A DNA stretch of 57,910 nt from Candidatus Aenigmatarchaeota archaeon (lineage in GTDB: Archaea > Aenigmatarchaeota > Aenigmatarchaeia > GW2011-AR5), in the NCBI GenBank assembly GCA_043799385.1, contig JAZDNV010000031.1:1-57910 (forward strand), in the 5' to 3' direction. The stretch's first letter is position 1. The number at the start of each line of letters is the position of its first letter. Under the pieces are notes generated by a model. The model saw only the letters and a program-made list of their open reading frames with translations, did no database searches and had not been told where the DNA came from. This document shows, one piece after another, positions 11,658 through 42,704 of the stretch. Both the position numbers and the translations under genes were made by a program.

Positions 11658-11749
11658 AGCTTTGTTTAAAAAATGATGGACATCTGTATGATGTCCATCG
11701 ATGGATAGGCTATCACGCCTACGTGATAGCCTAGTTTTTAAACAAAGCT
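11658..11749 (+). mobile_element. MITE copy 1 (15-bp TIR AGCTTTGTTTAAAAA, 9-bp TSD)
   Basis: Perfect TIRs; flanks TAAATTCAT / TAAATTCGT (8/9); two internal hairpins; near-identical to copy at 24521. Confidence 0.88.
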
Positions 11750-11776
11750 TAAATTCGTTGAAAGTGATGTTCAGTT

Positions 11777-12454
11777 ATGATAAAGGCAGTTCTCTTTGAT
11801 TTGGACCAAACGCTCATAGACTTCATAGGGATGAAAAAAATCGCCTCTAAAAAGGCTGCTTTTTCCATGGTCAAGGCCGGCCTGAAGATGGACCGCGGCG
11901 ATGCAGGCGAAATGCTTTTTGATTTCTACATCAAAGAAGGCATAGAATCGAATACCGCTTTCACGAGATTCCTTAAAAAGCACGGAAGCATGGACCACAA
12001 AATTCTTGCCGCAGGCATAAATGCATACACAAAGGCAAAATACGAGAGCATGAGAACTTACCCAAAAGCCAGAATCGTTCTAAGAAGACTAAAGAAAAAA
12101 GGGCTGAAGCTTGGCATAATAACCGACGCACCGAAGCTGAAGGCATGGCAGCGACTGCATATGATGGGTATGGAGGATTTTTTTGATATAGTTGTAGCGT
12201 TTGACGACACCAGAAAAAAGAAACCGCACGGTTCGCCGTTCAGCGTTGCGGTCACTAAACTAAAAATAGCTCCATGCGAAATATTGTTCGTTGGCGACCA
12301 GCCGCAGCGCGACATCAGGGGCGCAAAAAAGGCAGGAATGATTACCGTACTCGCAGGATACGGAATACAGGAAAAATTCAGGAAGCATCTGAAGAGATTT
12401 AAGCCGGATTACACGATAAATAGTCTTGAGGAACTAGTAAGGCTGATAAAATGA
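11777..12454 (+). CDS. HAD-superfamily hydrolase (TIGR02253-like)
   Basis: FDLDQTL motif I, KKKPH, VGD...DI.GAK.AGM. Confidence 0.9.
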   Translation: MIKAVLFDLDQTLIDFIGMKKIASKKAAFSMVKAGLKMDRGDAGEMLFDFYIKEGIESNTAFTRFLKKHGSMDHKILAAGINAYTKAKYESMRTYPKARIVLRRLKKKGLKLGIITDAPKLKAWQRLHMMGMEDFFDIVVAFDDTRKKKPHGSPFSVAVTKLKIAPCEILFVGDQPQRDIRGAKKAGMITVLAGYGIQEKFRKHLKRFKPDYTINSLEELVRLIK

Positions 12455-13911
12455 AATTGTCATTCTACGGAGGCGTAAATGAGATAGGAGGAAACAAATT
12501 TCTGCTAGAGGACAAAGAAACGAAAATATTTCTGGATTTTGGAAAAAACTTCATGATAGAGAACCGGTTTTTCGATTTCCCGTTAGTCCAGCCGTTCTAC
12601 ATACCTGACCTGGAAAAGACTGGCGCGATACCGGCTATTTCCAGTCTTTACCGAGATGCGAACGCTCCGTACAGAAAAGCCGGAACAAAGCCGGTCGACG
12701 GCATATTGTTAACGCATGCGCACATGGACCACTACGGCTATATACCATTGATTCGCGGCGACGTGCCAATCTTTCTAGGCAAAGCAACAGTCGATATTAT
12801 TAATATAAGGAGCGAGACATATGCGGCAACGTGGGGAAGCAAAACAGGGCACATAAAGCACGTTGAAACTTTTCACAGTAACGACCTGAAAGAATGCAAG
12901 AATATATCATTCAAGCCCGTGCATGTCGACCATTCGATACCCGCGTCGTATGCGTATATAATCTACGGAACGAAGACAGTCGCATACACGGGCGATCTGC
13001 GCCTGCACGGATACAAAAAAGAATTGACGAAAGACTTCATCGCTGAACTTGAAAAAAACGAAGTCGATGTATTGCTGTGCGAAGGCACGAACATCGTGTC
13101 AGAGCGGGATGATTTGTTCCTGAAAAATTTCGAGCAGGAGTTAATGCGAAGAAAGCAGAACCCGCCCAAGAGAACTTTATTACCGTGCAAATCAGAGGAC
13201 GAGGTTCTTGAAAAAATGAAGGGCATCGTGAATGACATGCGCGGCCTTGTCATAATAGAGACGAACCCTGCGGACATAGACAGGATAAGGACAATATTCA
13301 ATGTCGCATCGCTGACGAAAAGAAAGCTTGTCCTCACGCCGAAGCAATCGTACCTTGTCCACGCGCTGGAGGCGATTGGCGACATAAAAGAGCTGCCAAA
13401 ACTTAATGATTTTTGCCTTTATCTTGACCGCGTGAGAAAGAGGCAGGGCGAGGAGTGGGAAGAAGCTTTCAACGAGTCCTATCGCCAGGATTACCAGCGG
13501 ACTATGATAGATAAGTGCAAGGACGTTTTGCACGACGAAGAAGGCAGGGAAGAATTGCGCAAGAACGGTGATGAATATATAATCTGCACGGACAATGCGA
13601 CGAAGCGTTTCCAGGAACTGAAGCCCACGAGCGGAACGTTTCCGTGCAACTACATATTGAGCAAGTCAGAGCCGTTCACAGAGGAGATGATGATTACTTT
13701 CGATAAGCTTCTGAACTGGCTGATAATATCCGGAATAACCGAATACCACCAGCTGCACGTTTCAGGTCATGCATCTAAAGATGATTTGAAGAAAATAATC
13801 GACGCCGCTAACCCGAAGACGATTATTCCAATCCACACGGAGCACCCAGAGCTCTTCAAGAAATTCGGCAACGTCAGGATACCGACAATGAACGGCATGA
13901 TGGAGATATAA
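12451..13911 (+). CDS. MBL-fold / beta-CASP ribonuclease (RNase J-like)
   Basis: GG..EIGGN, THAHMDHYG, VDHSIP, YTGDLR, HVSGHA, PIHTEH. Confidence 0.85.
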   Translation: MKLSFYGGVNEIGGNKFLLEDKETKIFLDFGKNFMIENRFFDFPLVQPFYIPDLEKTGAIPAISSLYRDANAPYRKAGTKPVDGILLTHAHMDHYGYIPLIRGDVPIFLGKATVDIINIRSETYAATWGSKTGHIKHVETFHSNDLKECKNISFKPVHVDHSIPASYAYIIYGTKTVAYTGDLRLHGYKKELTKDFIAELEKNEVDVLLCEGTNIVSERDDLFLKNFEQELMRRKQNPPKRTLLPCKSEDEVLEKMKGIVNDMRGLVIIETNPADIDRIRTIFNVASLTKRKLVLTPKQSYLVHALEAIGDIKELPKLNDFCLYLDRVRKRQGEEWEEAFNESYRQDYQRTMIDKCKDVLHDEEGREELRKNGDEYIICTDNATKRFQELKPTSGTFPCNYILSKSEPFTEEMMITFDKLLNWLIISGITEYHQLHVSGHASKDDLKKIIDAANPKTIIPIHTEHPELFKKFGNVRIPTMNGMMEI

Positions 13912-13932
13912 TCTTTAAATTCTTTTCTATGT

Positions 13933-14271
13933 ATGTGTATCGATATGTCGATTAACAGACATATACCGGAAATCGAGCTTGGCTTATTGCAGATGCAGAT
14001 TCTGTGGCTGCTCAACAAGAAAGGAACGCACGGCTACGAGCTGATGAAGCGATTGAGCGACCTAAAGACTACGAAAATCACGCAGGGAACATTATACCCG
14101 ACGTTGCAGCGATTGGAGGAACTAAAGTTAATCAAGAGCAGGGAGGACGATCGCAGAAAGGTTTACATCCTCACTGACAAAGGCAAGAAAACGATGAAAG
14201 ATTCATGTGCTGATTTCTGCAAGACTTTTCATGGCATATTCGAGGATTTCATATGCGGAAAATGTAGGTGA
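13933..14271 (+). CDS. PadR-family transcriptional regulator with 4-Cys C-terminal tail
   Basis: IL.LL...HGYEL...GTLYPTLQRLEE...RRKVY.LT.KG; ends CADFCKTFHGIFEDFICGKCR. Confidence 0.88.
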   Translation: MCIDMSINRHIPEIELGLLQMQILWLLNKKGTHGYELMKRLSDLKTTKITQGTLYPTLQRLEELKLIKSREDDRRKVYILTDKGKKTMKDSCADFCKTFHGIFEDFICGKCR

Positions 14272-14276
14272 TAAAA

Positions 14277-14321
14277 ATGAAAAAGAATAAATGTTGCTGC
14301 TGCTGTTGCTGTAAGTGCTAG
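14277..14321 (+). CDS. Poly-cysteine micro-ORF MKKNKCCCCCCCKC (14 aa)
   Basis: AGGTGA SD 5 nt upstream; mixed TGT/TGC codons; stop TAG overlaps the AGGTGA SD of the next ORF; below ORF-track cutoff. Confidence 0.75.
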   Translation: MKKNKCCCCCCCKC

Positions 14322-14329
14322 GTGATTAA

Positions 14330-14500
14330 ATGAAAAAAGGAATCGGCGGACCTGTGGATATACTGCATAGCATAGTGATAATTATAGTAGCGCTGTTCAT
14401 GATAAAACACGGCATCGACGGCAACGGGTTAGGCCCGATGTTTGTCATATTGTTTGCTTTGTTTCTATTGATACTTGAAGTAGGTGCTATATTCCTATGA
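14330..14500 (+). CDS. Small 2-TM membrane protein (56 aa)
   Basis: SD AGGTGA upstream; two hydrophobic segments; ATGA overlap with iscS start. Confidence 0.7.
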   Translation: MKKGIGGPVDILHSIVIIIVALFMIKHGIDGNGLGPMFVILFALFLLILEVGAIFL

Positions 14501-15651
14501 GAAGAATCTATCTCGACCATGCGGCAACGACTCCAGTGAGAAAAGAAGTTGTTGAGGCAATGAAACCTTTTTTTGACAAGAAATACGGCAACGCATCCTC
14601 GCTTCATCGTTTTGGCCAGGATGCAAAAATTGCTTTGGACGAATCCAGGCACACGATTGCAAAGTTTCTAGGCGCTGGCGATAATGAGGTCATATTCACA
14701 TCAGGCGGCACTGAATCAGATAATCTAGCTTTGATTGGAACAGCTTTCGCAAATCGCAGCAAAGGAAAGCACATAGTAACATCAAAAATCGAGCACCATG
14801 CGGTTCTGCACACGTGCCAGTGGCTGGAAAAGAACGGTTTCGCGGTTACATATCTGCCGGTCGATAGATACGGTTTTGTTGACGCAGGCGACGTAGAGAA
14901 GTCGCTAAGGGACGATACGATTCTCGTGTCGATAATGCACGCGAACAACGAAATCGGGACGATAGAGCCAATAGAAGAAATCGGCAGAATCTGCAACGAG
15001 CACAACGTCTGCTTCCATACAGACGCTGTGCAGAGCTTCGGCAAGATACCGATAAACATGAAATACATCAATCTGCTATCTGTGTCAGGACATAAGGTTT
15101 ACGGGCCGAAGGGAATCGGATTGCTTTTTATCAGAAACGGAACAAGAATCGAACCAATACTTCATGGTGGTGGCCACGAAAAAAAGATGCGCTCGGGAAC
15201 AGAAAATATTCCAGGCATCGTAGGCTTCAGCAAGGCGGTTGAACTCGCTGGCAAAGAAATGAAATTAGAGTCAGGTCGAGAGATAAAACTGAGAGATAAG
15301 CTGATAAAGAACGTATTAAAAATTGATAACGCCTACCTGAGTGGCCATCCGAAAAAGCGGTTGCCGAACAATGCAGGGTTCTGGTTCAAATTCATCGAGG
15401 GCGAGTCGCTCGTCCTGCAGTTGGATAGTTATGGCATCGCAGCGTCCACAGGCAGCGCGTGCTCATCGAAATCGCTCGAACCTTCACATGTGTTAAAAGC
15501 AATCGGATTGAAGCATGAAGAATGCCATGGTTCGTTGCGGATGACGCTTGGCCGGCAAAACACTAGCAAGGATATAGATTATACGCTGGATGTTTTACCA
15601 AAAGTCGTTGAAAAGCTGAGGCAGATATCTCCGTTCAAAAAGAGGTGGTAA
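14497..15651 (+). CDS. iscS: Cysteine desulfurase, group I (IscS/NifS)
   Basis: YLDHAATTP, SGHKVYGPKG (PLP Lys), STGSACSS (catalytic Cys). Confidence 0.96.
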   Translation: MRRIYLDHAATTPVRKEVVEAMKPFFDKKYGNASSLHRFGQDAKIALDESRHTIAKFLGAGDNEVIFTSGGTESDNLALIGTAFANRSKGKHIVTSKIEHHAVLHTCQWLEKNGFAVTYLPVDRYGFVDAGDVEKSLRDDTILVSIMHANNEIGTIEPIEEIGRICNEHNVCFHTDAVQSFGKIPINMKYINLLSVSGHKVYGPKGIGLLFIRNGTRIEPILHGGGHEKKMRSGTENIPGIVGFSKAVELAGKEMKLESGREIKLRDKLIKNVLKIDNAYLSGHPKKRLPNNAGFWFKFIEGESLVLQLDSYGIAASTGSACSSKSLEPSHVLKAIGLKHEECHGSLRMTLGRQNTSKDIDYTLDVLPKVVEKLRQISPFKKRW

Positions 15652-16103
15652 TTATGTATTCAAAAAAAGTCATGAATCTTTTCACGAAACCGCACAATCT
15701 CGGAAGAATAGAGAACGCGGACGGCGTCGGAAAAGTAGGCAATATTATATGCGGAGACGTCATGCACCTTTACATAAAAATAAAGAATAATAAAATCGCT
15801 GACATAAAATTCGAGACATTCGGCTGCGCGGCAGCGATTGCGACGAGCAGCATGATCACTGATATTGCAAAAGGCAAGACGATAGAAGAGGCAATAAAAA
15901 TCGGCAGGAAGGACGTTGCTGACAATCTAGGCGGTCTGCCACCGATAAAGATGCACTGCTCGAACTTGGCAGCAGATGCATTGCACGAGGCAATATACGA
16001 CTACATGTCTAAAAATAAGATAAAAATACCTAAGGAGCTCCAGAAAGAGCATGAAAGGATAAAAAAAGAATTGTATACGACCGAGCACAAGTACATGCGT
16101 TAG
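15645..16103 (+). CDS. iscU: Fe-S cluster scaffold IscU/NifU-N
   Basis: GNIICGDVM, FGCAAAIATSS, LPPIKMHCS. Confidence 0.95.
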   Translation: MVIMYSKKVMNLFTKPHNLGRIENADGVGKVGNIICGDVMHLYIKIKNNKIADIKFETFGCAAAIATSSMITDIAKGKTIEEAIKIGRKDVADNLGGLPPIKMHCSNLAADALHEAIYDYMSKNKIKIPKELQKEHERIKKELYTTEHKYMR

Positions 16104-17020
16104 TCCTTCATCTTTGATAAGTAATCAGCTGCGGCTAAAGCGGCTTTCGCTCCTTCGCCTGCTGCCACGATTATCTGCTTTTCAGGTATGTCAGTCACAT
16201 CGCCAGCCGCGAATATGCCCGGAACGCTGGTCATGTTCTCCTTGAACATCTCCGTGCATCGCGAAATCATTATCTCGTTCCTCTTGTTCTTTTTCACGAT
16301 TTTTGCGAATTCGACATTTGGTATTGTTCCAATTTCGATGAAGACGCCAGAAACCGCAATTTTTTCTCGTCTGCCTTTTTTTTCTATTTCTACAGCACTT
16401 ACGAATTTGTCGCCAATTATCTTGGTTATGTTGGTTTCGTTCAGTATCTTTACTTTGTCATTTTTTTTCGCTTTTTCAATCATAACGTTATCGGCGGTTA
16501 ATTTTTTCCATCTGTTAAGAAGATAAATCTTGTTCGCGATTTTTGTCAACTGCAGAACTGCGTCCAATGCCGAATTTCCGCTGCCAACGACCGCTACGTT
16601 TTTTTCAGTGAATAATGGCGCATCGCACGTTGCGCAGTGGGTTACGCCACGGCCGAGGAATTCTTTTTCGCCTGATATCTCTAATCTTCTAGGCTTTTTT
16701 CCCGAAGCGATTACCAGCGTTTTGCATTCGTACTTTCCTTTATCGGTTACTACAGTTATTATTTTGCCCTTTTTCTTTATGTCGACGACTTCATCATTCC
16801 TGATTTTTATTTTATAATACTCCAAGTGTTCCTGGAACTTCTTTACAAGTTCTGCGCCTGATACAAGATGATAGCCAAGGTAATTTTCGACATCAGAAGA
16901 AAGCAATGCCTGCCCGCCGACATCCTTGGATATAAGCAGAAAATCAATTTTTTTTCTTGCAAGGTAGATTGATGCGGTTAATCCTGCCGGTCCTGCTCCT
17001 ATTATTATCGCATCATGCAT
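16100..17020 (-). CDS. trxB: Thioredoxin reductase-like FAD oxidoreductase (TrxB/AhpF-C type; start moved to ATG 17020)
   Basis: IIIGAGPAGL, HCATCDAP redox pair, VGSGNSA, FAAGDVT. Confidence 0.9.
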   Translation of the reverse strand: MHDAIIIGAGPAGLTASIYLARKKIDFLLISKDVGGQALLSSDVENYLGYHLVSGAELVKKFQEHLEYYKIKIRNDEVVDIKKKGKIITVVTDKGKYECKTLVIASGKKPRRLEISGEKEFLGRGVTHCATCDAPLFTEKNVAVVGSGNSALDAVLQLTKIANKIYLLNRWKKLTADNVMIEKAKKNDKVKILNETNITKIIGDKFVSAVEIEKKGRREKIAVSGVFIEIGTIPNVEFAKIVKKNKRNEIMISRCTEMFKENMTSVPGIFAAGDVTDIPEKQIIVAAGEGAKAALAAADYLSKMKD

Positions 17021-17021
17021 A

Positions 17022-17459
17022 CTAACCACAAGTTCCGCAGCCGTCAGTACAGTTGCAACTTCCATACGTAGTTGTTGCGTTGCAATCAGCACACGTGCAC
17101 ACCTGCTCAACGCCAAATATACAACCTTCGGGGTCCGAAGGGTCGCAAGAGCCATGCACAACGATGTTATATACCCCGTTTGCTGCAAAAACCAGGCTCA
17201 GGATTAATGTAATCATGAAAAACCAAGAGATTGGCTCAAAATATTTGTACGTGAATTTTGCTAATTTCTGGCTCCTCATCATAAGCTTGCTGATTATCTT
17301 TGATTTCATCTTTTGGTCGAATTGCGTGTCACACTTCCTGAGCGTCATTCTTCTAAAAATGCATCGCGACGCTTCCTTGAAATAATTCCTATATTTTACA
17401 GAGAACAACCCTAGGAATCCGAATACTATCATGGCAACTACGCATATCATGTGAATCAC
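17022..17459 (-). CDS. Hypothetical membrane protein with Cys-rich C-terminus
   Basis: Two hydrophobic segments, C-terminal C..C..CTCADC..CNC..CGTC; tightly coupled between sufS and trxB. Confidence 0.7.
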   Translation of the reverse strand: MIHMICVVAMIVFGFLGLFSVKYRNYFKEASRCIFRRMTLRKCDTQFDQKMKSKIISKLMMRSQKLAKFTYKYFEPISWFFMITLILSLVFAANGVYNIVVHGSCDPSDPEGCIFGVEQVCTCADCNATTTYGSCNCTDGCGTCG

Positions 17460-18649
17460 TTCAGTTTAATAATTTTACTTATGGTATCATTAAATACCTT
17501 ACACTCCTCTTCTGTATTGTATAAATACAGAGAGACGCGGGCAGAACCGTCTATCTTATGTGCGTTGAACCAGGAATGAACGCAGTGCTGTCCGGAACGA
17601 ATCATTATGTTTGCAAGCTCGTCAAGCATCAATGCGATTTCATGGTATCCGATGCCGTTTATATTGAATGATGTTATGCCGCTTCGCATTTCGACTGATG
17701 GCCCGATTATATCTGCTATTCCGAACAAGGAATCGGTAATAATCGTATTCAGTCTTTGCTCGTGCTTCTCAACGTTGTCAAGACCTATCTTATCAAGGTA
17801 ATTCAGGGCTTCGGCCAGACCTATTGCTCCAGCATAATTCTGCAACCCGGCTTCGAATTTTTCAGGCGGCTCCAAAAGCTTGTGCGTTTCATAAGTCGAG
17901 CTGGATACGGTGTCGCCGCCGAGCATGAAAGTGCCAAGCGTTTCAAGCAATTCATGTTTGCCGTACAAACAGCCGATGCCAGAAGGCCCAAGCGCCTTGT
18001 GTCCGGAAAAAGCAAGAAAATCGCAATCCATCTTCTTTACATTCATCTTCTTGTGCGGCACGCTCTGTGCGCCATCCAGCATCACCAATGCGCCAAAGTC
18101 GTGTGCAATTTTTATTATATCCTCCGCTGGTATCGTATAGCCATCAAGATTGGACGTATGGACCATTGAAACTAGTTTTACGTTTTTGTTCATCTTACTC
18201 TCGAATTCTTCCATGTTAAACGTGTTGTCGCGATTAGAGAAGACTATCTCATGCCTTATCCCACGATTGGTGAGGACTTGCCATGGCAGCAGGTTTGAGT
18301 TGTGCTCCTTGTCTGTTGTCAGGACGATATCGCCGTTATGCAGGTTTAGCGAATTCGCGACAAGGTTTATGCCCTCAGTCGTGTTCCTTGTGAATACAAT
18401 CTCATTTGTTTTTGCGTTCAAGAATTTGGCTATGTTTTCCCGGGATTTCTCATATTTTTCTGTGACCAATGCGCCCAATCGATAGCTGCTGCGGGTGCAT
18501 ACCGGAAAGTTTTCATAGTATTCGTTCATCGCGTTTATTACCTGCTTTGGCCGCAGCGTCACGCAGGCGTTGTCAAAGTATATCAGCGGCTTTCCGTTCC
18601 TAACCTGCTGGAGCAGTGGAAAATCCTTTCTTATGTTATCTACGTTCAT
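17456..18649 (-). CDS. sufS: Cysteine desulfurase, group II (SufS/Csd)
   Basis: IRKDFPLL, YFDNA, FSGHK..GPSG, EKFEAG, RSGQHC. Confidence 0.92.
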   Translation of the reverse strand: MNVDNIRKDFPLLQQVRNGKPLIYFDNACVTLRPKQVINAMNEYYENFPVCTRSSYRLGALVTEKYEKSRENIAKFLNAKTNEIVFTRNTTEGINLVANSLNLHNGDIVLTTDKEHNSNLLPWQVLTNRGIRHEIVFSNRDNTFNMEEFESKMNKNVKLVSMVHTSNLDGYTIPAEDIIKIAHDFGALVMLDGAQSVPHKKMNVKKMDCDFLAFSGHKALGPSGIGCLYGKHELLETLGTFMLGGDTVSSSTYETHKLLEPPEKFEAGLQNYAGAIGLAEALNYLDKIGLDNVEKHEQRLNTIITDSLFGIADIIGPSVEMRSGITSFNINGIGYHEIALMLDELANIMIRSGQHCVHSWFNAHKIDGSARVSLYLYNTEEECKVFNDTISKIIKLK

Positions 18650-18716
18650 AACGGTCAATTAAAAATACCTTTGACCTAAAAGTTTTAAAATGCCTAGGTA
18701 TTTCCCATAGGATAAA

Positions 18717-18833
18717 TTATCTCTTCTTCCTGAGCTTTTGCTTGCACGCGAAGCATATCCATTTCTCGTCAATCCTGTCAACTAGGCGCGTTCTGCTGCA
18801 TACAGAACATTTCTTTATGGACAGTTTCATCAT
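18717..18833 (-). CDS. Small zinc-finger protein (38 aa)
   Basis: MMKLSIKKCSVCSRTRLVDRIDEKWICFACKQKLRKKR: CxxC...CxxC; fills the gap between flanking co-oriented genes. Confidence 0.7.
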   Translation of the reverse strand: MMKLSIKKCSVCSRTRLVDRIDEKWICFACKQKLRKKR

Positions 18834-18838
18834 GTTTT

Positions 18839-19135
18839 CTACCTTTTTCTTATCTGGTACGTTCCGCCCTTAAGCGCGGTTTTTGCCTGCCTGATGCCGG
18901 ACATGACGTACCCGAACATGCGGCTTCGTTCGAACCTTGATATCCTTTGCTCTTCCAGCATGACCAGCGTTGGTTCGATGTTGTCAAGCATCCTTAATGC
19001 CGAACCCCTTTTTTCCGCATTTCTTTCCCTGTCGGCCTTCTCCCTTACCTTATCGTATCTTTTTCTGAGAAGATAAATCTTTCTTCTGTAGCTGAGCATG
19101 AATGATATAAATCCTGCAATCCTTCTGAAGACCAT
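18839..19135 (-). CDS. Hypothetical basic helical protein
   Basis: 98-aa ORF co-oriented with the downstream zinc finger; no family recognised. Confidence 0.6.
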   Translation of the reverse strand: MVFRRIAGFISFMLSYRRKIYLLRKRYDKVREKADRERNAEKRGSALRMLDNIEPTLVMLEEQRISRFERSRMFGYVMSGIRQAKTALKGGTYQIRKR

Positions 19136-24266: not shown

Positions 24267-24521
24267 ATGGAAATCGAGGTAAAGGAAATCTTTCTGGACG
24301 AGTGGGTAAAGCTGCACACGTTCATCAGCAGGAACTATGACAGGAAGGCGAAAAAGCACCTAGTTTTTGTGACAGGCGTGAGCTTTGCCGGCCTTACAGA
24401 TGTATACAAAGGCAAGCGTGGAGACGTACACCAGGTCTATCGTGGCGTCACGCTGTACGTAAGGGACGGCATACCGAAAAAGAAGCGAGACGAATTGAAA
24501 TCGATAATCGGAGATTTCTGA
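24267..24521 (+). CDS. Hypothetical protein (84 aa)
   Basis: ATG 24267 more plausible than track start; stop codon completed by first base of MITE copy 2. Confidence 0.6.
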   Translation: MEIEVKEIFLDEWVKLHTFISRNYDRKAKKHLVFVTGVSFAGLTDVYKGKRGDVHQVYRGVTLYVRDGIPKKKRDELKSIIGDF

Positions 24522-24619
24522 GCTTTGTTTAAAAACTAGGCTATCATCCTGCTATTAGCGATGATAGCCTATCCATCGATGGACATCATACAGATGTCCA
24601 TCACTTTTTAAACAAAGCT
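24521..24619 (-). mobile_element. MITE copy 2
   Basis: Perfect 15-bp TIRs; perfect 9-bp TSD AGATTTCTG (24512-24520 / 24620-24628); reverse complement of copy 1 except one base and the loop of hairpin 2. Confidence 0.92.
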
Positions 24620-24684
24620 AGATTTCTGAAAACGTTTTAATACTTAATCATTAATTTAATAGGAATAGTGTTTGAGTGGTATTT

Positions 24685-27440: not shown

Positions 27441-28835
27441 ATGTTTGATTCTCTAAAGAAACGGCTAAAAGAAGTTTTCAAAAAGGCGACTGCGATTGTT
27501 GAAAAGCCGGAAGAGATTAGAGAAGAAAAAAAGGAGATAAAGGAAGAGGCAATCGAGGAAAAAGTTGAAAAATACAAAGAGATTGAAGAGAAGGAAGAGC
27601 GTGTAAAAGAATTCGAGGAAGTTGAAGGGAAAGAAGAAATCACCGCAACTGAAGAAAAAGATGATGACCTTATAGCGGAAGTTGAGAAGGAGGTCGTGAA
27701 AGAGGAACTGCCAGAAGAGTTTGCGGCAAAGGAGAAAGAAATCGAAGAAGAGATACCCAAGATAAAGAAGGAATTGGCTGAGCTGGAAGATGATGTAGGA
27801 ATAGAGAAAGAAAAAAATATAGAAATAGTTGAGGCAGAATTGGCGGTTCTGAAGCCAAAGTTGGAATTCGAGAAAGAACTAAAAGAGGAGCCGATTGGCA
27901 AGAAAGAACGGGAAGAAGAGATTAAAGTTGAGATTCGCGAAGAAAAGAAAGAGAAAAAAGGCTTGTTCTCCCGTCTGCTTCCGGGCATTGTCAAGAAAGT
28001 CACTGAAAAAAAGCTTTCGGTCGGCGATGTTGATACGATATTGAACGAACTAAAAACTGCGTTGCTTGAAAATGACGTTGCATTTGCCGTAGCCGAGAAG
28101 ATATGCAACGACGTGAAAAGCGATTTAGTCGATAAATCCGTGAAGCGCGGCAGCGTTGAGGAGATAATTAAAGCGTCGCTTCATAGCGCAATGCTCGATG
28201 TCATGAGTCAGGAAAAAATAGATTTGGAGAAGATGATTGAAAAAAAGCAGCCGTTCACTATAATATTTCTCGGCTTTAATGGAACTGGAAAGACGACAAC
28301 GATGGCAAAGCTTGCGCACAAGTTCAAGAAACACAAGCCGGTAATCGCCGCTGCTGACACGTTCCGTGCAGCGAGCATCGAGCAACTGGAGGAGCATGCA
28401 TCACGGCTAAAAGTCGATTTAGTCAAACATAAGTATGGTTCTGATTCCGCAGCCGTGATATTCGACGCAAAGAAGCACGCGGAAGCGGTCGGAGCAGGAA
28501 TCGTTCTTGCCGATACAGCCGGAAGAAGCCATGCCAACGCAAACCTGATGGACGAGCTAAAGAAGATATGCAAAGTCAACAACCCCGATATGAAGATTCT
28601 GGTCCTTGATTCGCTGACTGGCAACGATATCTACGAGCAGTCGCGTTTATTCAACGACGCTGTAGGCGTTGATGGAATAATACTCACGAAAGCCGACGTA
28701 TACGAAAAAGGCGGAGCGGCGCTATCAGCTTCTTATACAATAAAGAAGCCGATTCTCTATCTTGGCGTCGGCCAGAACTATGACGACCTGAAAGAGTTCA
28801 ATCCACAGGATATCGCGGATAAGCTGCTGAAATAA
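27441..28835 (+). CDS. ftsY: SRP receptor FtsY
   Basis: Acidic N-terminal region; GFNGTGKTTT, DTFRAA, DTAGR, TKAD, GVGQ.Y.DL. Confidence 0.96.
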   Translation: MFDSLKKRLKEVFKKATAIVEKPEEIREEKKEIKEEAIEEKVEKYKEIEEKEERVKEFEEVEGKEEITATEEKDDDLIAEVEKEVVKEELPEEFAAKEKEIEEEIPKIKKELAELEDDVGIEKEKNIEIVEAELAVLKPKLEFEKELKEEPIGKKEREEEIKVEIREEKKEKKGLFSRLLPGIVKKVTEKKLSVGDVDTILNELKTALLENDVAFAVAEKICNDVKSDLVDKSVKRGSVEEIIKASLHSAMLDVMSQEKIDLEKMIEKKQPFTIIFLGFNGTGKTTTMAKLAHKFKKHKPVIAAADTFRAASIEQLEEHASRLKVDLVKHKYGSDSAAVIFDAKKHAEAVGAGIVLADTAGRSHANANLMDELKKICKVNNPDMKILVLDSLTGNDIYEQSRLFNDAVGVDGIILTKADVYEKGGAALSASYTIKKPILYLGVGQNYDDLKEFNPQDIADKLLK

Positions 28836-34145: not shown

Positions 34146-34146
34146 C

Positions 34147-34848
34147 ATGGCAGAAGAAAAAATCACCGCAACTGAAGAAAAAGCAGCCGTCAAAGTCAAG
34201 AAGGAGAAGAAGTTGCAGAAGGAGAAGAAGCCGACGATAAAAAAAGATGTTGTGCTGCCGCCGATAAAGTTATTCGGCAAGTGGGACAGCAGCGTTGATG
34301 TTAACGACGCCGGTCTAAAAAAATATATTAATCTGAAGCCAAGAATACTACCGCGTTCTGCCGGCATTTTCAGAAAGAGGTTCCACAAATCAAAAATGCA
34401 TATAGTTGAAAGGTTTGCGTTGCACATGCTTGTTCCCGGACACATGGGCAAAAAGCATAGATTGACGTCTGGTCACATGGCTGGAAATGTCGCCAAGATT
34501 ATGAAAAATATCGAGAGTGCCTTTGACGTAATCGAAGCGAAAGAAAAGAAATCGCCTGTTGAAGTCTTGGTGAGGGCGATAGAAAACGCCGCGGTAAGGG
34601 AGGAAGTGATGTCATATCAGATCGGCAGCATAACAGCCCGAGATGCGGTTATATCATCCCCGCAAAGAAGAATTGACAAGACGCTTGAAAACTTTGCCCG
34701 TGGCATCTACAGGAGGACGTTCAAAAAGAACAAGACGCTTTCAGACGTAATCGCAGAAGAGCTGATTGCAGCGTCTCACAATTCTGCTGACAGCTTCGCG
34801 ATAAAGGAGAAGGAAAGGATAGAGAGAGAAGCGACCGGCTCTCGTTAA
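34147..34848 (+). CDS. rps7: 30S ribosomal protein uS7
   Basis: KLFGKWD, F.KSKMHIVER, LVRAIENAA.REE, SPQRRID. Confidence 0.95.
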   Translation: MAEEKITATEEKAAVKVKKEKKLQKEKKPTIKKDVVLPPIKLFGKWDSSVDVNDAGLKKYINLKPRILPRSAGIFRKRFHKSKMHIVERFALHMLVPGHMGKKHRLTSGHMAGNVAKIMKNIESAFDVIEAKEKKSPVEVLVRAIENAAVREEVMSYQIGSITARDAVISSPQRRIDKTLENFARGIYRRTFKKNKTLSDVIAEELIAASHNSADSFAIKEKERIEREATGSR

Positions 34849-37067: not shown

Positions 37068-37690
37068 ATTATCTTCCCCAATTCTGACAATGAATTTAAA
37101 ATCAACTCCGGGTTTTCTTTTTCAAGAATCGCTTTTGCATGATAGCCAGTGCAAACTGCAGCTGATTTCACTCCTGCTAATTTAGCGGACCTGATGTCAT
37201 AAATCATGTCGCCTACGTATAATGCAGAAGCGGAATCAATGCGAAAATGCCTGCAGACATTCAAAAGGCCTTCCACCTTGTTTCTGGAACTGCCGGAGAT
37301 GAAATCTATCAGCTGGATTAAATTGTAGTGCTCGGCTTCTCTCCTGACGTTTTTTGCAGGATGGCTGCTCAATATCGCAATTTTCTTTCCTTTGTTTTTC
37401 AGATTCTGAAGAATTTCATGTGCGTCAGGATAAACCTGTGGAGCGATGCCTGAGTCATGGACTTCTGTGTAGAGTTTTTCATACAGCAAAAACAGTTCAT
37501 CATGGTTTTTGTCGATGCCAATGCTGTCAAAAAAGTCCAGAATGGTCATCTTCACTTTCGGCAGCCACTCTTCAAAAGAAAGCACGGGTTTGTTAAAATG
37601 CTTCATCAGCCTGATGTTTGTTTCATAAACTGGTTTCCTGTCGTCGCTGATAGTTCCGCTCCAGTCAAAGATGAAGAGTTCTATTTCCAT
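37064..37690 (-). CDS. HAD-family phosphatase (Gph-like)
   Basis: FDWSGTISD, YVGD..YDI.SA..AGV; start moved to MEIELF. Confidence 0.85.
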   Translation of the reverse strand: MEIELFIFDWSGTISDDRKPVYETNIRLMKHFNKPVLSFEEWLPKVKMTILDFFDSIGIDKNHDELFLLYEKLYTEVHDSGIAPQVYPDAHEILQNLKNKGKKIAILSSHPAKNVRREAEHYNLIQLIDFISGSSRNKVEGLLNVCRHFRIDSASALYVGDMIYDIRSAKLAGVKSAAVCTGYHAKAILEKENPELILNSLSELGKII

Positions 37691-38334
37691 TTCAATTCCC
37701 TCAACGCGTCGTTTGCAACCCATTTCGCTGATTTTGAATTGATTTTCTGAATCTCTTTTGCAGTTTTTATAGCCGCTTTTTTCAGTTTCGCATTCCGTTT
37801 GCCAATCTGTCGTAGAGACCAGTTGACGGCTTTCTTTACGAAGTTTCTTTCATCAGTCGAACATATTTTTATTATAGGCAGGAACTTCAGGAATTTTTCA
37901 TTCCCTGCTTTTTTGTCATGCACGGCTAGGCATGCCATGAGCGCAAAGCCTGCGCGTTTTTCAAACTCCTCGGTTCTTGACGACCATTCAACTGCCTTGT
38001 CGTACGCAAAAGCTGTCTTGTCAAAGAGGTTCATGCATACCTGGTCGCAGACATCCCAGGAATCGAAATCCCTTATCCACGAATCCATCTGCTTCTCCGT
38101 TACTAATGCAGTGTCATCAATCATTCCTGCAAGAATTCGCGCTTCGTGTATTCCGGATGACCATAATCGTTGAGCAAGAGCATGGTCTTTTCCAAGCTCT
38201 TTGGCCATCTTCCGCAAAATCGGCATCGATATTCCGTACGCATTTTTAGGTTTGATGCCGAATCGAGCCATGCCCTCGACGTTCTTAGGGTTAGAAAGAG
38301 ATTCCAGTTTTTTGAGAACTTCCTTATGCTGCAT
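37681..38334 (-). CDS. DNA alkylation repair protein (AlkD-like HEAT repeat)
   Basis: LWSSG.HEARILA, SWDVCD, R.FVKKAVNW.LRQIGKR. Confidence 0.88.
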   Translation of the reverse strand: MQHKEVLKKLESLSNPKNVEGMARFGIKPKNAYGISMPILRKMAKELGKDHALAQRLWSSGIHEARILAGMIDDTALVTEKQMDSWIRDFDSWDVCDQVCMNLFDKTAFAYDKAVEWSSRTEEFEKRAGFALMACLAVHDKKAGNEKFLKFLPIIKICSTDERNFVKKAVNWSLRQIGKRNAKLKKAAIKTAKEIQKINSKSAKWVANDALRELKWK

Positions 38335-38765
38335 TACCAAGGCCTTCCGTAATCTTTCTTTTCCTCCCTAAGCTTTTCATGTATTTCATTTAGGTCCTTT
38401 TCGCTGAGCTCGACTCGCCTGTAGGAAAAGATTACTTTGTCATTTTCAAATCTGGGTATTATGTGGAAATGTATGTGGTTGACTATTTGGCCGGAAATGC
38501 GGCCGTTGTTTTGTATTATGTTCATGCTATCGGTACCCATCTTTATCCTGACGTGCTCTGCTATCTTCTTCACGACCACTATCATGTCCTGCAGCTCTTT
38601 TTCGCTGACGTCAAAAATTGCATCGCTATGCTTCTTTGGTATCACCAGTACGTGGCCCGGATTCGCGGGATTTATGTCCAGGAACGCCAGAACCGAGTTA
38701 TCTTCATAAACCTTTTTTGAGGGAATCTCGCCTTTCACAATCTTGCAAAATATGCAGTCATTCAT
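38334..38765 (-). CDS. HIT family nucleotide hydrolase
   Basis: CIFCKI, FLDINP..PGH.LVIPK, HIHFHIIPR. Confidence 0.95.
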   Translation of the reverse strand: MNDCIFCKIVKGEIPSKKVYEDNSVLAFLDINPANPGHVLVIPKKHSDAIFDVSEKELQDMIVVVKKIAEHVRIKMGTDSMNIIQNNGRISGQIVNHIHFHIIPRFENDKVIFSYRRVELSEKDLNEIHEKLREEKKDYGRPW

Positions 38766-39049
38766 GCTATCGCCACTGATAATATCATGGTTATGGATAT
38801 AATCAGGGCAATGGTTATAAAGATTGCCGTGACGAGACTAAGAATTCTTTCATATTTTTTGAAGCGCAGTGAAATGAACAACAATACTAATGGCAACAGA
38901 ATCAGAGCCAGGATGAGAAAGAAAAACGGGTTTGTGTACAAACCAAAGCTTATCGCAGGAACTATAAAGTATGCAGCGTCGACCATCAAAAAAGCCACGT
39001 AAACGATGACTGCGAATAGAAGATACATCTGCATAAATCTAATTGTCAC
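38762..39049 (-). CDS. Hypothetical membrane protein
   Basis: About 3 hydrophobic segments; 4-bp overlap with the HIT gene. Confidence 0.55.
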   Translation of the reverse strand: MTIRFMQMYLLFAVIVYVAFLMVDAAYFIVPAISFGLYTNPFFFLILALILLPLVLLFISLRFKKYERILSLVTAIFITIALIISITMILSVAIA

Positions 39050-39068
39050 CGCAGTTTTTAAATAAACT

Positions 39069-39443
39069 TTACTTCTTCTTGTACGCGGCTGCTATAGGAA
39101 CGACCAACGCCAGCAGGTAGCTGAGCATTATCGACCAGGACGTGAAATAGTTCCACCCCTGCGTGCTAGCGAAGCCGTAGACCATTACTGGCACTTCAAT
39201 CACAAAGGTCACTACCGCAAAAACGACGCCAAGCATCAAGCCCTCGTTTATCGGCTTAACGATTTTCATCGACTTGAAATAGTAGTACTTTGCCACGATG
39301 AAGGTCAGCAATGCTCCTGACACCAGCATCGCTACGCTGAACGCATCGCCGGTCATCTTCGCGACGAACATCAGTATGCTCGCCCACAAGAAAATCAGCG
39401 CATACAAGATAACTGCGGATATCAGCGCTTTCTTTATGTTCAT
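39069..39443 (-). CDS. Hypothetical 4-TM membrane protein
   Basis: Four hydrophobic helices; directly downstream of tRNA-Trp. Confidence 0.65.
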   Translation of the reverse strand: MNIKKALISAVILYALIFLWASILMFVAKMTGDAFSVAMLVSGALLTFIVAKYYYFKSMKIVKPINEGLMLGVVFAVVTFVIEVPVMVYGFASTQGWNYFTSWSIMLSYLLALVVPIAAAYKKK

Positions 39444-39484
39444 GAGAATAATTATGCAAGGCGTTATTTAAAGAATTTATGATA

Positions 39485-39697
39485 TGGGGCCAGGAGGATT
39501 CGAACCCCCGTCAACGCGTTTCTTCAGAAGAGTAGAAACCTACGGTTTCTCTCTTTCTAATCTCATTTCCCTTTTCTACTTTTTCATCGCCTACTAAAGG
39601 CTCAAGTCTCCAGTTCTTTGGGGTAAACCCTAGACCTTTCTTCTTAAGAAAGGGCTTGGGACTGGAGCGCGCCGTGATACCACTACACCATGGCCCC
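39485..39697 (-). tRNA. tRNA-Trp(CCA) with 142-nt canonical 37/38 intron (39520-39661)
   Basis: GGGGCCA/TGGCCCC acceptor; GCGCG-CT-CCA-G|intron|A-CGCGT; GGGGG-TTCGAAT-CCTCC T-arm. Confidence 0.93.
39520..39661 (-). ncRNA. Probable intron-encoded box C/D guide RNA (Cm34 of tRNA-Trp)
   Basis: ACTGGAG antisense to CTCCAGT followed by AC-TTGA; the +5 rule lands on C34; C'-like GCGATGA and terminal CTGA; 5' box C not recognisable. Confidence 0.55.
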
Positions 39698-39761
39698 GTT
39701 GTATAGATAAATACAGGGTTAGAAATTAAAAGGCTTTATTCTTTTCGGAGATAGTTTCTGC

Positions 39762-40943
39762 ATGGCTGACAAAAGAGGATACGTAGGTCTGAAAACAGCA
39801 CAGCCGCTTAGCAGGACGTATGGAATAACGCCTGCAGGAGAAGGGTTGCGACCCGTTTACTCGTTCAGCAGGTACGCAGAAGGGCTTTTCGCTACCATAC
39901 CACCAAAAGAAAAGGAGAAGATGCTACCGCAATTCCAGCAGCATCTGGTCTCTCTGCTTGAAAAAGGAGAGCTGAAAGCGCAGTTTCAAATCCCTTTTCC
40001 GTTCTTTTTGCAGTACCAAATGCTTGAAGGAATCAAAGAGGCCACGAAAACCAAGACACAGGAAGGCACGACAAAGCTTTGGTACGCTGCAAGGGATGTC
40101 GAAGGAGAGGCAGACGACTATAAGGCAGAAGGCAAGGTGCCTTCAAGGCGCTCTGGCCGTGGGTCTGACGTACTCAAGAGATGGGATGTGAAGCATAGAT
40201 ACGGTAAGTTTGCATGGTGCGGTTCCACTGGCTGCAAGCACGATGCTGAAAACATGATAGTATGCTTTCATAATGCAGAGCTGGCTTTTAAACTCGGCAA
40301 ACCGACACCGTTTGTAATAAGCTCCCTAAAGTCAATGGAGGTTGCCTACAGGAAGTATGTTCTCGGAGAGGATATGAACGACATTGATTACAGGGAGATG
40401 GACAGGAGAGAAAATTACAATCAGGCATACGTGAGTAAAATAGAAAGGGGCAAGATGATTTTTGTAGCACCGTTATCAAGATTCAAGAAAATAAGAATCA
40501 AGCAGGAAAAGGTCGCTGCTAAAAACAGGTGGGTAAAGGCGCAAAGGAGCCTTGTAAACGATTACCTTAGGCCGAATCTCGAACAGCGCGGATTCAAGGA
40601 GGTTGGATATGCATTTGAGGGAAGGGGAACACGCTGGGAAACTGTTTGCAGGACCTATCAGAACGGCAATGTAATATACCGGCCCATAATAAGGGCTGAC
40701 ATGCCGCCTGTAATCTCCCGCTGGGTGCTTACAGATAAGTCAGAGTTCTCCCCTGTGCGGCTGACAGACAATATGTTTGCCAATATCGGAGACCCTGTGA
40801 TGGAGGTAGATGACTCAACAAGGAGGTGGGGAGAGCATACATTTTTCATCCCTGGCTCTGAAATGCCTGATGGCTTACCCAAGGTAGAGATGCTTGAGAC
40901 GTGGAAGCAAGATTACCGAAAGCTTCTGGAGAAGAGCAAGTAA
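39762..40943 (+). CDS. Hypothetical protein, possible SWIM-like Zn site
   Basis: 393-aa ORF; C-x4-C...C-x-H (WCGSTGCKH...VCFH); no family recognised. Confidence 0.7.
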   Translation: MADKRGYVGLKTAQPLSRTYGITPAGEGLRPVYSFSRYAEGLFATIPPKEKEKMLPQFQQHLVSLLEKGELKAQFQIPFPFFLQYQMLEGIKEATKTKTQEGTTKLWYAARDVEGEADDYKAEGKVPSRRSGRGSDVLKRWDVKHRYGKFAWCGSTGCKHDAENMIVCFHNAELAFKLGKPTPFVISSLKSMEVAYRKYVLGEDMNDIDYREMDRRENYNQAYVSKIERGKMIFVAPLSRFKKIRIKQEKVAAKNRWVKAQRSLVNDYLRPNLEQRGFKEVGYAFEGRGTRWETVCRTYQNGNVIYRPIIRADMPPVISRWVLTDKSEFSPVRLTDNMFANIGDPVMEVDDSTRRWGEHTFFIPGSEMPDGLPKVEMLETWKQDYRKLLEKSK

Positions 40944-41089
40944 AACTACCCTAACTAAGGTCAGCTGCTGCGCGAGTTAGGCCTTGGCAGCTAGTTCGGC
41001 AGAAGCCCGCCAGGAGCTGTATTTAAGTCTTTCAAAGTGGCGAAAACCTTAAATACAGGGATTTCTATAGTTAGTTTAGGTGAATAAAA

Positions 41090-41449
41090 ATGGAAATGAC
41101 AAAGATAGGAGAATACCTATTCTTACTAGGAGCAATAGTAGCAGTACTTACAGGATTGGGATCCAGTTATGTCGTAGGCGCTACAGGAGCTTGGATTGTA
41201 GCATTGCTAGTATTGATAGGTATTGTCGTAGGTTTTCTGAACGTTACTGAGAAAGAGTTCACAGCATTCCTGGTTGCGGCTATCGCGCTGGGAATCGCAG
41301 GCACAGCAGCTTTCACAGCAATCGACGCAGTCTTATCACCTATAGGAACGATGATAACAGCGATTGTGAAGAATCTTGCAATACTTGTCGCACCTGCTGC
41401 AGTTATTGTAGCAGTCAAGCAAGTAATGGCAATGGCTAGCAAGAAATAA
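41090..41449 (+). CDS. Small hydrophobic membrane protein (LNVxxxExxxFL family)
   Basis: SD AGGTGA, TATA-like upstream, poly-T terminator; four Ala/Gly-rich TM helices. Confidence 0.8.
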   Translation: MEMTKIGEYLFLLGAIVAVLTGLGSSYVVGATGAWIVALLVLIGIVVGFLNVTEKEFTAFLVAAIALGIAGTAAFTAIDAVLSPIGTMITAIVKNLAILVAPAAVIVAVKQVMAMASKK

Positions 41450-41490
41450 ACTCTTTCTGACTTTTTTTTCTTTTATTTTATTATTTACTA
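41450..41490 (+). terminator. Oligo-T archaeal terminator
   Basis: CTCTTTCTGACTTTTTTTTCTTTTATTTTATTATTT directly after the stop. Confidence 0.5.
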
Positions 41491-41494
41491 CGCT

Positions 41495-41818
41495 TTATGC
41501 TCTCGGTTCGATAACCAGTTCGCAGGACTTTCCTGTGTCCTTTTTCATAAGCATTAACGAGGCATCGACAACGCCCTTCAGAAAATTGTGGATTTCAACG
41601 TCCTTTCCGTTGCCTTTTGTCTTGAGCTCAAAGCCGAAGTACGCTTTGTTGTCGCTGCCTTCAGTGTACGCTACCTCAAAAGAAGGGGTGGTACGCGTTG
41701 CATCGTCAAAGACAAAATCAACCGTAGTGCCTATAGTTTTTGGTATTATGCCCTTCAAGTACGCTCTTACCTCAGGGTCACCACTTTTTCCTATAATACA
41801 ATAGTCCGGCATACGCAC
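41495..41818 (-). CDS. Hypothetical protein
   Basis: 107-aa ORF with globular-type composition. Confidence 0.55.
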   Translation of the reverse strand: MRMPDYCIIGKSGDPEVRAYLKGIIPKTIGTTVDFVFDDATRTTPSFEVAYTEGSDNKAYFGFELKTKGNGKDVEIHNFLKGVVDASLMLMKKDTGKSCELVIEPRA

Positions 41819-41857
41819 ACTATAGTCAAAACCGTCTTAAAACCTTCAGAAACAGCG

Positions 41858-42037
41858 TCAGAGGTGCGGAGGCGGTATCAGCTCCTTGCGCGTCTCCTGG
41901 ATCTTCTTGCCGCATGGGCATTTCCAGGTTATATAGAATATCGTGTTGTTCATCTCCTTCTCTTCTATGGTCGCCACAGGAACAAAAGCCTGCTTGCAGC
42001 TAGCGCATTTTGGCGCTTCAGTTACCTTTATCTCCAT
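41858..42037 (-). CDS. Small zinc-ribbon protein (59 aa)
   Basis: MEIKVTEAPKCASCKQAF...WKCPCGKKIQETRKELIPPPHL; CxxC...CxC; below track cutoff. Confidence 0.7.
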   Translation of the reverse strand: MEIKVTEAPKCASCKQAFVPVATIEEKEMNNTIFYITWKCPCGKKIQETRKELIPPPHL

Positions 42038-42082
42038 AGGTGAATATTTGCCGCGATTCTATAAAAAGCTTGAAGAAGCAGC

Positions 42083-42180
42083 AGCTTTATTTAAAAAGTC
42101 GGCTATCATCTGCTTCTAGCGATGATAGCCTATCCGTCAATGGGCATCATATAGATGCCCATTACTTTTTAAACAAAGCT
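42083..42180 (-). mobile_element. MITE copy 3
   Basis: TIRs with one mismatch; perfect 9-bp TSD AGAAGCAGC (42074-42082 / 42181-42189); compensatory changes in hairpin 1. Confidence 0.9.
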
Positions 42181-42196
42181 AGAAGCAGCAAGGAGC

Positions 42197-42457
42197 TCAA
42201 AAGATATAGTTACCCAGCAGGAAACCTATGGTCATGTACACAGCCATCAGGATCAGGCAGTGCAAGTGCCTGCCGGCAACTATCTTCAGGGCAACGCCAA
42301 GGCAAACGACAGCTGGCAAAAAGAATGAAAGGCTAATGGACGCACCAGCAACCATGCCGATGGCTATGTCAAGAATCATCCTCAATTGACCGTGAATAAC
42401 CGTCTGGATAACAAACCCAAAGACTGCCGCAGCCAGATACAATGCAATCGCATCCAT
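42197..42457 (-). CDS. Hypothetical small membrane protein
   Basis: 86 aa, 3 hydrophobic segments; starts 8 nt after tRNA-Thr 3' end. Confidence 0.6.
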   Translation of the reverse strand: MDAIALYLAAAVFGFVIQTVIHGQLRMILDIAIGMVAGASISLSFFLPAVVCLGVALKIVAGRHLHCLILMAVYMTIGFLLGNYIF

Positions 42458-42464
42458 TGAATCA

Positions 42465-42571
42465 AGCCCCGACCGAGGATTGAACTCGGGACCTTCACCT
42501 TACCAAGGTGACGCTCTACCAATCTCACAAGCCCTTTCTTCTAAGAAAGGGATGTACTGAGCCATCGGGGC
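42465..42571 (-). tRNA. tRNA-Thr(GGT) with ~33-nt D-loop intron (~42523-42555)
   Basis: GCCCCGA/TCGGGGC acceptor; TCACC-TT-GGT-AA-GGTGA; CCGAG-TTCAATC-CTCGG; insert between GCTCAGT and TGGTAGAGC. Confidence 0.92.
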
Positions 42572-42616
42572 ATCATTGTCAATTATGATGTTCATAGTTT
42601 AATATCTTTGCAGCAA

Positions 42617-42704
42617 AACTTTGTTGAAAAAGTGATGGATATCTGTAATATCCATCTGTGGTAGGCACGTCAGCATGATGATAGCCTAGTTTTTCAACAA
42701 AGCT
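42617..42704 (+). mobile_element. MITE copy 4 (degenerate)
   Basis: TIR variant CTTTGTTGAAAAA/TTTTTCAACAAAG (compensatory); hairpin 1 GATGGATAT/ATATCCATC; hairpin 2 and TSD eroded. Confidence 0.8.

Follow-up and report, generated by a model that had tools for sequence, protein, structure and literature searches.

A miniature inverted-repeat element of about 99 bp with IS903-like ends and two covarying hairpins in DPANN archaea

We analyzed contig JAZDNV010000031.1 (57,910 nucleotides (nt); assembly GCA_043799385.1) from a Candidatus Aenigmatarchaeota archaeon and refer to this whole stretch of DNA as the window. It encodes L21e, S10, and EF-2 and carries intron-containing tRNAs. The best named relatives of its S10 protein, at 74–86% identity, are all from Aenigmatarchaeota. 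Four short repeats (c1 to c4, Table 1) lie between the genes of the window. A preliminary description of the same DNA had listed these repeats as a non-autonomous element with IS903-type ends and 9-bp target-site duplications, and our analysis supports that assignment. The repeats are copies of a non-coding mobile element of ~99 bp, a transposable element of the miniature inverted-repeat type (MITE) with IS903-like ends. The c1 copy lies in the spacer between the divergent L21e and HAD-hydrolase genes, and c4 lies between a divergently oriented tRNA gene and a surface-protein gene. The c2 copy is upstream of the S10 gene, and its first base is the last base of the TGA stop codon of an open reading frame (ORF) at 24267-24521. 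The c3 copy separates two minus-strand genes arranged in tandem, with 16 nt between it and the preceding gene and 45 nt to the following one. All four copies are therefore intergenic or at a stop codon, with two in divergent spacers, as had been described.

All four copies were found in the window, and the 9-bp duplications attributed to them are perfect at c2 and c3 and match at 8/9 positions at c1. In the common orientation, with hairpin B first, c1 and c4 read along the plus strand, and c2 and c3 along the minus strand. The copies differ in their state of preservation. Loop C of c1 is 7 nt shorter than in the 99-bp form. One end of c3 carries a G-to-A change (AGCTTTATTT), and hairpin B of this copy differs from that of c1 and c2 by two compensated pair changes. 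The c4 copy has variant ends (AACTTTGTTGAAAAA and AGCTTTGTTGAAAAA) and no recognizable target duplication in its flanks (3/9); it retains hairpin B with compensated changes, and its hairpin C is partly deleted or mismatched. The 15-mer AGCTTTGTTTAAAAA occurs at eight sites in the window when zero to two mismatches are allowed, and all eight are ends of the four copies. Allowing three mismatches adds only one further window site. A covariance model built from 22 copies found no fifth copy in the window, leaving exactly four in 58 kb.

Table 1. Copies of the element in the window and their parts (bit scores from the 22-copy covariance model)
Feature	Coordinates	Strand	Details
Copy c1	11658..11749	+	92 bp; 97.7 bits
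c1 terminal repeats	11658-11672 and 11735-11749		
c1 hairpins	B 11675-11699; C 11706-11733		
c1 target-site duplication	left 11649-11657; right 11750-11758		left TAAATTCAT; right TAAATTCGT; 8/9
Copy c2	24521..24619	-	99 bp (canonical length); best covariance-model match, 109.4 bits
c2 terminal repeats	24521-24535 and 24605-24619		
c2 hairpins	C 24537-24571; B 24578-24602		
c2 target-site duplication	left 24512-24520; right 24620-24628		left AGATTTCTG; 9/9
Copy c3	42083..42180	-	98 bp; 101.5 bits
c3 hairpins	C 42101-42130; B 42139-42163		
c3 target-site duplication	left 42074-42082; right 42181-42189		left AGAAGCAGC; 9/9
Copy c4	42617..42704	+	88 bp; old, degenerate; 60.9 bits
c4 hairpin B	42634-42656		

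The element is not confined to this contig. We searched one genome per species for a pattern matching both ends and then extended the scan to metagenome contigs. These scans recovered ~17 further independent insertions at unrelated loci in metagenome-assembled genomes (MAGs) of DPANN archaea and in metagenomes. The element thus belongs to a family spread over many DPANN genomes. Copies were found in Aenigmatarchaeota MAGs (L011, L012, L017, L019, and L021) and in archaeon GW2011_AR5 (L016), and the remainder come from other unclassified archaeal MAGs and from groundwater or sediment contigs. Each of the other genomes showed one to three pattern-matching copies, which is a lower bound because an exact match of both ends was required. 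The covariance model found no additional copies in any fetched locus.

Family members are 83–99 bp long and have ends of 15–17 bp that are 98.5% complementary and read GGCTTTGTT[T/G]AAAAA(GT). Most of the further copies are exactly 99 bp long and have perfect 9-bp duplications. Among ~20 insertions, 11 duplications are perfect and four match at 8/9 positions. The element is short, non-coding (indeed too short for protein-coding), bounded by terminal inverted repeats, flanked by duplications of fixed length, and present at many unrelated loci, as expected of a MITE. Its terminal inverted repeats and 9-bp duplications rule out palindromes of the REP/RAYT type, which are related to IS200/IS605. 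Twelve other pattern matches, in bacteria and elsewhere (L002, L003, L007-L010, L018, L020, L024, L030, L032, and L045), were set aside as chance matches or other elements; they lack 9-bp duplications and have unrelated cores. At one further locus (L031:2816-2834), the left flank is the same as that of L038. The right end there is followed by GC and an end-like sequence (GGCTTCGTTGAAAAG), after which the contig stops; this arrangement could mean either that a second element is present or that the assembly broke at a repeat.

We compared the ends of the family to those of IS903. The IS903 end (GGCTTTGTTGAATAAATC) was read from a fetched annotated IS903 copy and matches the one quoted in the preliminary description. 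The archaeal and IS903 ends (GGCTTTGTTGAAAAAGT against GGCTTTGTTGAATAAAT) agree at 15 of 17 positions, and their first 12 positions are identical. Window copies begin with AGC or AAC, compared to the GGC start of IS903-type ends. A 9-bp target duplication is a hallmark of the IS903 group. Because the end match and the duplication length coincide, the element is very probably a MITE of the IS5/IS903 type. Its closest named likenesses are IS903 and IS102 from Enterobacteria (IS5 family, IS903 group), which share the terminal repeat starting GGCTTTGTTGAA and the 9-bp duplication. IS903, however, is bacterial, autonomous, and 1057 bp long, and it encodes its own DDE transposase, whereas the family described here has a 99-bp non-coding core and archaeal hosts. 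It ties DPANN archaea to the otherwise mainly bacterial IS903 group.

A cognate transposase with matching ends, which the preliminary description had proposed to look for, did not turn up. Searches with tblastn and phmmer gave no credible IS903-like transposase, either in the window or across ~400 kb of related loci. One tblastn match to the IS903 transposase (E = 0.1) was rejected as chance, as it begins inside the L001/L037 copy and runs antisense to a proteasome subunit gene. In viral contigs, the two-end pattern gave no matches, and the single-end pattern gave at least 120 single chance matches and no transposase. Plasmid searches with a window copy and with a Legionella copy (see below) recovered no autonomous element. 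Mobilization would therefore be in trans, by a partner enzyme that the ends and duplications lead us to expect.

The same type of end occurs on unrelated cores in other organisms. A Nitrososphaera MAG contains a 90-bp MITE (L005:7867-7956, L023:4271-4360, and L014:461-550) with the same 17-nt ends (GGCTTTGTTTAAAAAGT). Its 9-bp duplications are perfect at L005 and L023, and the L014 flanks show no in-register match. The L005 and L023 copies are identical and sit at different loci, which implies that this MITE was recently mobile and that the genome holds a matching transposase. Unlike the Aenigmatarchaeota core, to which it is unrelated, the Nitrososphaera core is unstructured (z +0.3 to +0.9). 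Two elements from Legionella sp. PATHC038 (L013:1195-1298 and L015:3375-3457) share the first 15 nt of the end (GGCTTTGTTGAAAAA). Their cores lack the B/C pair: L013 has one clear hairpin (z -6.2), and L015 only a short, weak one (z -2.7). The occurrences in Nitrososphaera and Legionella suggest that this end type crosses domains and hint that the transposase type has spread between them.

Two internal hairpins distinguish the archaeal family. The preliminary description drew the element as an A-BB'-CC'-A' three-way junction, and this layout is the minimum-free-energy fold on both strands, with an outer 15-bp stem formed by the ends and two hairpins inside it. RNAalifold run on the 22 copies arrived at the same three-way junction with no structure supplied. 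Predicted energies for c1 to c3 are -46 to -51.5 kcal/mol (z -9.6 to -12.3), compared to about -14 to -19 for shuffled sequences. The degenerate c4 copy folds at -32 kcal/mol (z -5 to -7). As single-stranded DNA, the cores are stable too (z -7 to -9). Transcripts of MITEs generally fold into stable stem-loops (PMC10969869).

We tested the three-helix structure for covariation on the 22-copy alignment. Standard pairs occupy 94.6% of cells, and double changes are found in 19 of 37 pairs (89 cells). The covariation score of 0.313 compares to 0.131 for shuffles, none of which reached the observed value (0/500), and it falls to ~0.04 when partners are slid by one to three columns. Only 12 cells keep their pair through a one-sided change, compared to the 89 that are changed on both sides. 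Every compensatory stem change quoted in the preliminary description is present in the copies, and its claim that the internal hairpins are maintained by compensatory change stands far above the shuffled and slid controls. The sequence of hairpin C is nearly all replaced between subfamilies (TAGGCTATCA.., AACCCATTGG.., and CCTATCATCG..) yet remains paired throughout. Between subfamilies with almost the same stems, 40–60% of unpaired positions differ. Positions 1 and 10 of the terminal repeat also co-vary between the two ends, the pattern to be expected from a single transposase that recognizes both. Constraint on this element can therefore be symmetric without arising from RNA, and strong covariation in a repeat does not alone indicate a functional RNA.

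Covariation of this strength, very stable predicted RNA folds, and copies that adjoin promoters and gene ends all fit the suggestion in the preliminary description that the selected fold may act as a structured RNA or regulatory module. We took this to mean an RNA specific to one strand or a module serving the host, such as a cis-regulatory or small RNA. The details of the copies do not support it. Non-Watson-Crick cells on the reference strand comprise 11 G·T and 16 A·C, in a background of ~96% Watson-Crick pairing, so wobble pairs show no strand preference. Orientation relative to genes is unbiased as well: the B side and the C side face the downstream gene start in nine cases each, and read-through from the upstream gene would meet the element in sense eight times and in antisense six to seven times. 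Neighboring genes are unrelated from site to site, and native TATA boxes still separate the element from the genes, which makes a promoter role for it unnecessary. No Rfam family matched at the gathering score, and matches up to E 10 were noise only; a C/D-box small RNA was rejected on its box spacing, and other known RNAs on the same Rfam noise. The hairpins are lost or damaged in c4, L039, and L001, old copies with decayed duplications. We consider a host RNA or regulatory module very unlikely.

The pattern of change among copies instead locates the constraint at the level of the DNA element. Copies at the same site that differ between samples (L028/L035 and L031/L035) show single uncompensated stem changes only, whereas those at separate sites are distinguished mainly by compensated pairs. 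Across all copy pairs, we counted 830 compensated and 405 single-sided changes. The uncompensated changes in place, together with the loss of hairpins in old copies, indicate that the constraint acts on the transposing lineage and not on each resident copy. Total length follows the same division. Fourteen of the 22 copies are exactly 99 bp long, and these represent at least six subfamilies with different hairpin sequences. Copies with identical stems have loop B and spacer lengths of (5,6), (4,7), and (6,5), so that the sum is constant. The 99-bp length is found in 9 of 11 copies with perfect duplications versus one of five with decayed duplications. By arithmetic, the centers of the two 15-bp ends of a 99-bp element are 84 bp apart, or about eight helical turns, a spacing whose meaning we can only infer. 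These results show that the hairpin constraint is strand-symmetric, tied to a fixed total length, and visible only along the still-transposing lineage, while resident copies decay.

A mechanism consistent with these features can be proposed. A DDE transposase supplied in trans, as the ends and duplications suggest, would recognize the 15–17-bp ends GGCTTTGTT[T/G]AAAAA(GT) and insert the element through a 9-bp staggered cut. The B and C hairpins would be a cis-acting DNA feature needed for propagation of the element itself, most likely extrudable or bendable DNA that lets the transposase join ends only 69 bp apart. We give roughly even chances to this explanation, in which the hairpins are a DNA-level aid to the transposition of a very short element and not a structured RNA of the host. 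Several points weigh against it. No credible partner transposase was found in the loci searched. The unstructured Nitrososphaera MITE, with the same ends and 9-bp duplications, is still mobile, so hairpins are not a general requirement for this end type. Extruded palindromes would leave a linker of 4 to 16 nt, which is awkward for a single geometric model. Conservation of length could also partly reflect shared ancestry and the rarity of insertions and deletions. The preliminary description had stated that DDE transposition alone does not require the fold. The Nitrososphaera MITE agrees with this, but the exact 99-bp length suggests an element-level constraint on the DNA in the archaeal family.

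The covariation might also arise with no function at all. Intra-strand template switching during replication, in which one arm is copied from the other, would introduce double changes in a single step and in the absence of selection, and it can create and maintain hairpins in this way (PMC8794818, PMC5453318). The near absence of wobble intermediates (12 one-sided versus 89 two-sided cells) is what such a process would leave behind, the strand-symmetric pattern fits it, and arm shifts would keep the length, as seen in the constant sum of loop B and spacer. What template switching leaves unexplained is why subfamilies in different genomes share two hairpins at fixed places, conserved ATC/GAT cores, and a total of 99 bp, and why stems change much less than loops. 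The old resident copies (c4, L039, and L001) have decayed despite exposure to the same replication machinery, and copies diverging in place keep uncorrected single mismatches. We regard template switching as quite an improbable account of the hairpins.

Each strand of the element presents a hairpin, and 0–3 nt beyond it comes the terminal repeat's T5-6 run. This arrangement raises the possibility of a portable two-way transcript end, in which a hairpin and T-run stop or protect transcripts arriving from either side, insertions that fall after a stop codon and before the next promoter are harmless as a result, and the hairpins are kept since well-behaved insertions alone persist. Among the terminator-like sites listed for the window, the modules of the copies come first or nearly so. 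Both strands of c1 were scored as carrying such a module; c2 to c4 were each scored for one, and the second is visible in the sequence. A two-way end would account for there being exactly two hairpins, each abutting an end, and for the unbiased orientation, and the majority of insertions come immediately after a stop codon and ahead of a promoter. The SPRITE elements of Streptococcus pneumoniae, which carry a terminator-like hairpin and T-run as the present element does, offer a bacterial precedent (PMC10969869).

The T-run, however, lies in the transposase-binding end and would be conserved in any case. Archaeal RNA polymerases terminate at oligo-T tracts and do not need a hairpin, which weighs against this use of the hairpins in an archaeal host. 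Other hairpin and T-run sites in the window are not enriched compared to shuffles (17 versus 20, 27 versus 19.7, and 23 versus 15.3). Four insertions are in divergent spacers, where a terminator is useless, and only one is in a convergent spacer. A two-way terminator also leaves the exact 99-bp length unexplained, and old copies lose their hairpins. We therefore think it unlikely, if still worth considering, that the hairpins are kept as a transcript end.

Insertions of the family have a characteristic position relative to genes. Every insertion is intergenic and within tens of nucleotides of genes. Reconstruction of the empty sites gave a common layout: the 9-bp target, 4–7 A-rich nucleotides resembling a transcription factor B recognition element (BRE), a TATA-like octamer, ~21-24 nt, and ATG. 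We observed this layout in the window at 11649-11657, 24620-24642, and 42037-42082 and at eleven other loci (L006, L012, L017, L019, L022, L027, L029, L035, L038, L043, and L044). At c1, the left duplication overlaps the AT-rich TATA region common to the divergent L21e and HAD genes. At c2, the TATA-like sequence of the S10 gene (TTTTAATA) lies 6 nt past the right duplication. The distance of ~21-24 nt between TATA and ATG fits leaderless or short-leader mRNAs.

We quantified this placement using a strict definition of the TATA-like octamer (eight A/T bases containing TA). A gap of 3–7 nt to such an octamer is found at 9 of 20 insertions, but at only 7.5% of the intergenic positions used as controls (p about 6e-6). 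When only insertions -9 to +20 nt from an octamer are counted, 9 of 16 have the 3–7-nt gap versus 5/30 expected (p about 4e-4). The placement beside promoters, with a single insertion in a convergent spacer, could reflect targeting or a selection filter, and the two are not separable here. We also considered the element itself as a promoter, given the TATA-like sequence TTTTTAAA in its ends, and dropped the idea because a native TATA lies ~21-24 nt before the ATG in nearly every case. For the closest insertions, the native TATA still intervenes once start codons are corrected.

It is conceivable, though we rate it as improbable, that the family represents a promoter-targeting archaeal transposon. 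The edge of the target duplication would then lie 4–7 nt from TATA, abutting the BRE; DNA bent by TBP/TFB might guide insertion, and the double hairpin, locked in length, would serve as a hinge or insulator. If true, this would be the first promoter-directed integration described in Archaea. IS5 in E. coli likewise inserts just upstream of promoter elements, at destabilized or bent DNA (PMC5493358, PMC11894529). The E. coli cases differ in that they involve sigma-70 promoters, 4-bp duplications, and full-length insertion sequences, whereas the insertions described here leave a gap of 4-7 nt to an archaeal BRE/TATA.

We looked for empty sites at the window loci. No strict empty site was found among relatives of the c1 and c2 loci. 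The closest S10 relative (89% identity) shares the gene order EF-1α (assigned by inference), small ORF, S10 and has no element in its 126-bp spacer, although the spacers do not align. At the c1 locus, HAD homologs are at most 62% identical and have different neighbors. The window proteins encoded by the HAD-hydrolase gene beside c1 and by the orphan ORF beside c2 are not on record elsewhere. Subtracting the element and one duplication from the c1 spacer leaves 51 bp, measured from the longest L21e ORF (GTG at 11624); equivalent compact spacers in relatives are ~50 bp. The orphan ORF (24267-24521, plus strand) lies between a probable EF-1α gene and S10 and has no homolog among 5.8 billion proteins. 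The final two bases of the duplication supply the TG of its TGA stop, and c2 supplies the A with its first base; the pre-insertion sequence gives the same stop.

Other families of short repeats resemble the element in part. MITEs are known in the archaea Sulfolobus (SM1-4), Halobacterium, and Haloquadratum (PMC10969869); these are likewise non-autonomous derivatives of archaeal insertion sequences, but they have other ends. A census of MITEs reported high densities in some DPANN genomes, and the present family is not described there (PMC11602168). Correia elements of Neisseria, ERIC, and the BOX, RUP, and SPRITE elements of Streptococcus pneumoniae are likewise short, intergenic, and multicopy and combine terminal repeats with internal stem-loops. 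All of these are bacterial, and they differ in their ends, duplications, and parent insertion sequence families. RNA-level effects have been shown or proposed for them, whereas in the present family the constraint shows strand symmetry, goes together with length, and disappears from resident copies. Our literature search turned up no report of IS903-type MITEs in archaea, of Aenigmatarchaeota transposons, or of a 99-bp family of IS903 type with a double hairpin in Aenigmatarchaeota. The family, a MITE of the IS5/IS903 type in DPANN archaea, is apparently undescribed. It adds a well-defined MITE to the barely characterized mobile elements of DPANN archaea. Its combination of covarying palindromes, exact length, and BRE/TATA-adjacent insertion provides a test case for the internal needs of a very short DNA transposon.

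We noted several other features of the window. A tRNA gene at 44887-45008 (plus strand) has a 53-nt intron. A second intron-containing tRNA at ~42465-42571 (minus strand) resembles tRNA-Thr(GGU), has an extra insertion in the D-arm region, and scores below the Rfam threshold. Neither was detected by ARAGORN in bacterial mode. An ORF of 1566 amino acids (564-5264, plus strand) is internally repetitive, with repeats at 1077-1231 and 1357-1980; among them is a tandem duplication of 81 bp (97% identical). Other very large proteins, probably secreted, are encoded near it at 5320-8715 (Laminin_G_3/DUF2341) and at 47819-51010 (a papain-like protease with thrombospondin type-3 repeats). Finally, a 30-nt sequence is shared at 97% identity between 27631-27660 and 34154-34183, in the 5' regions of two different genes.

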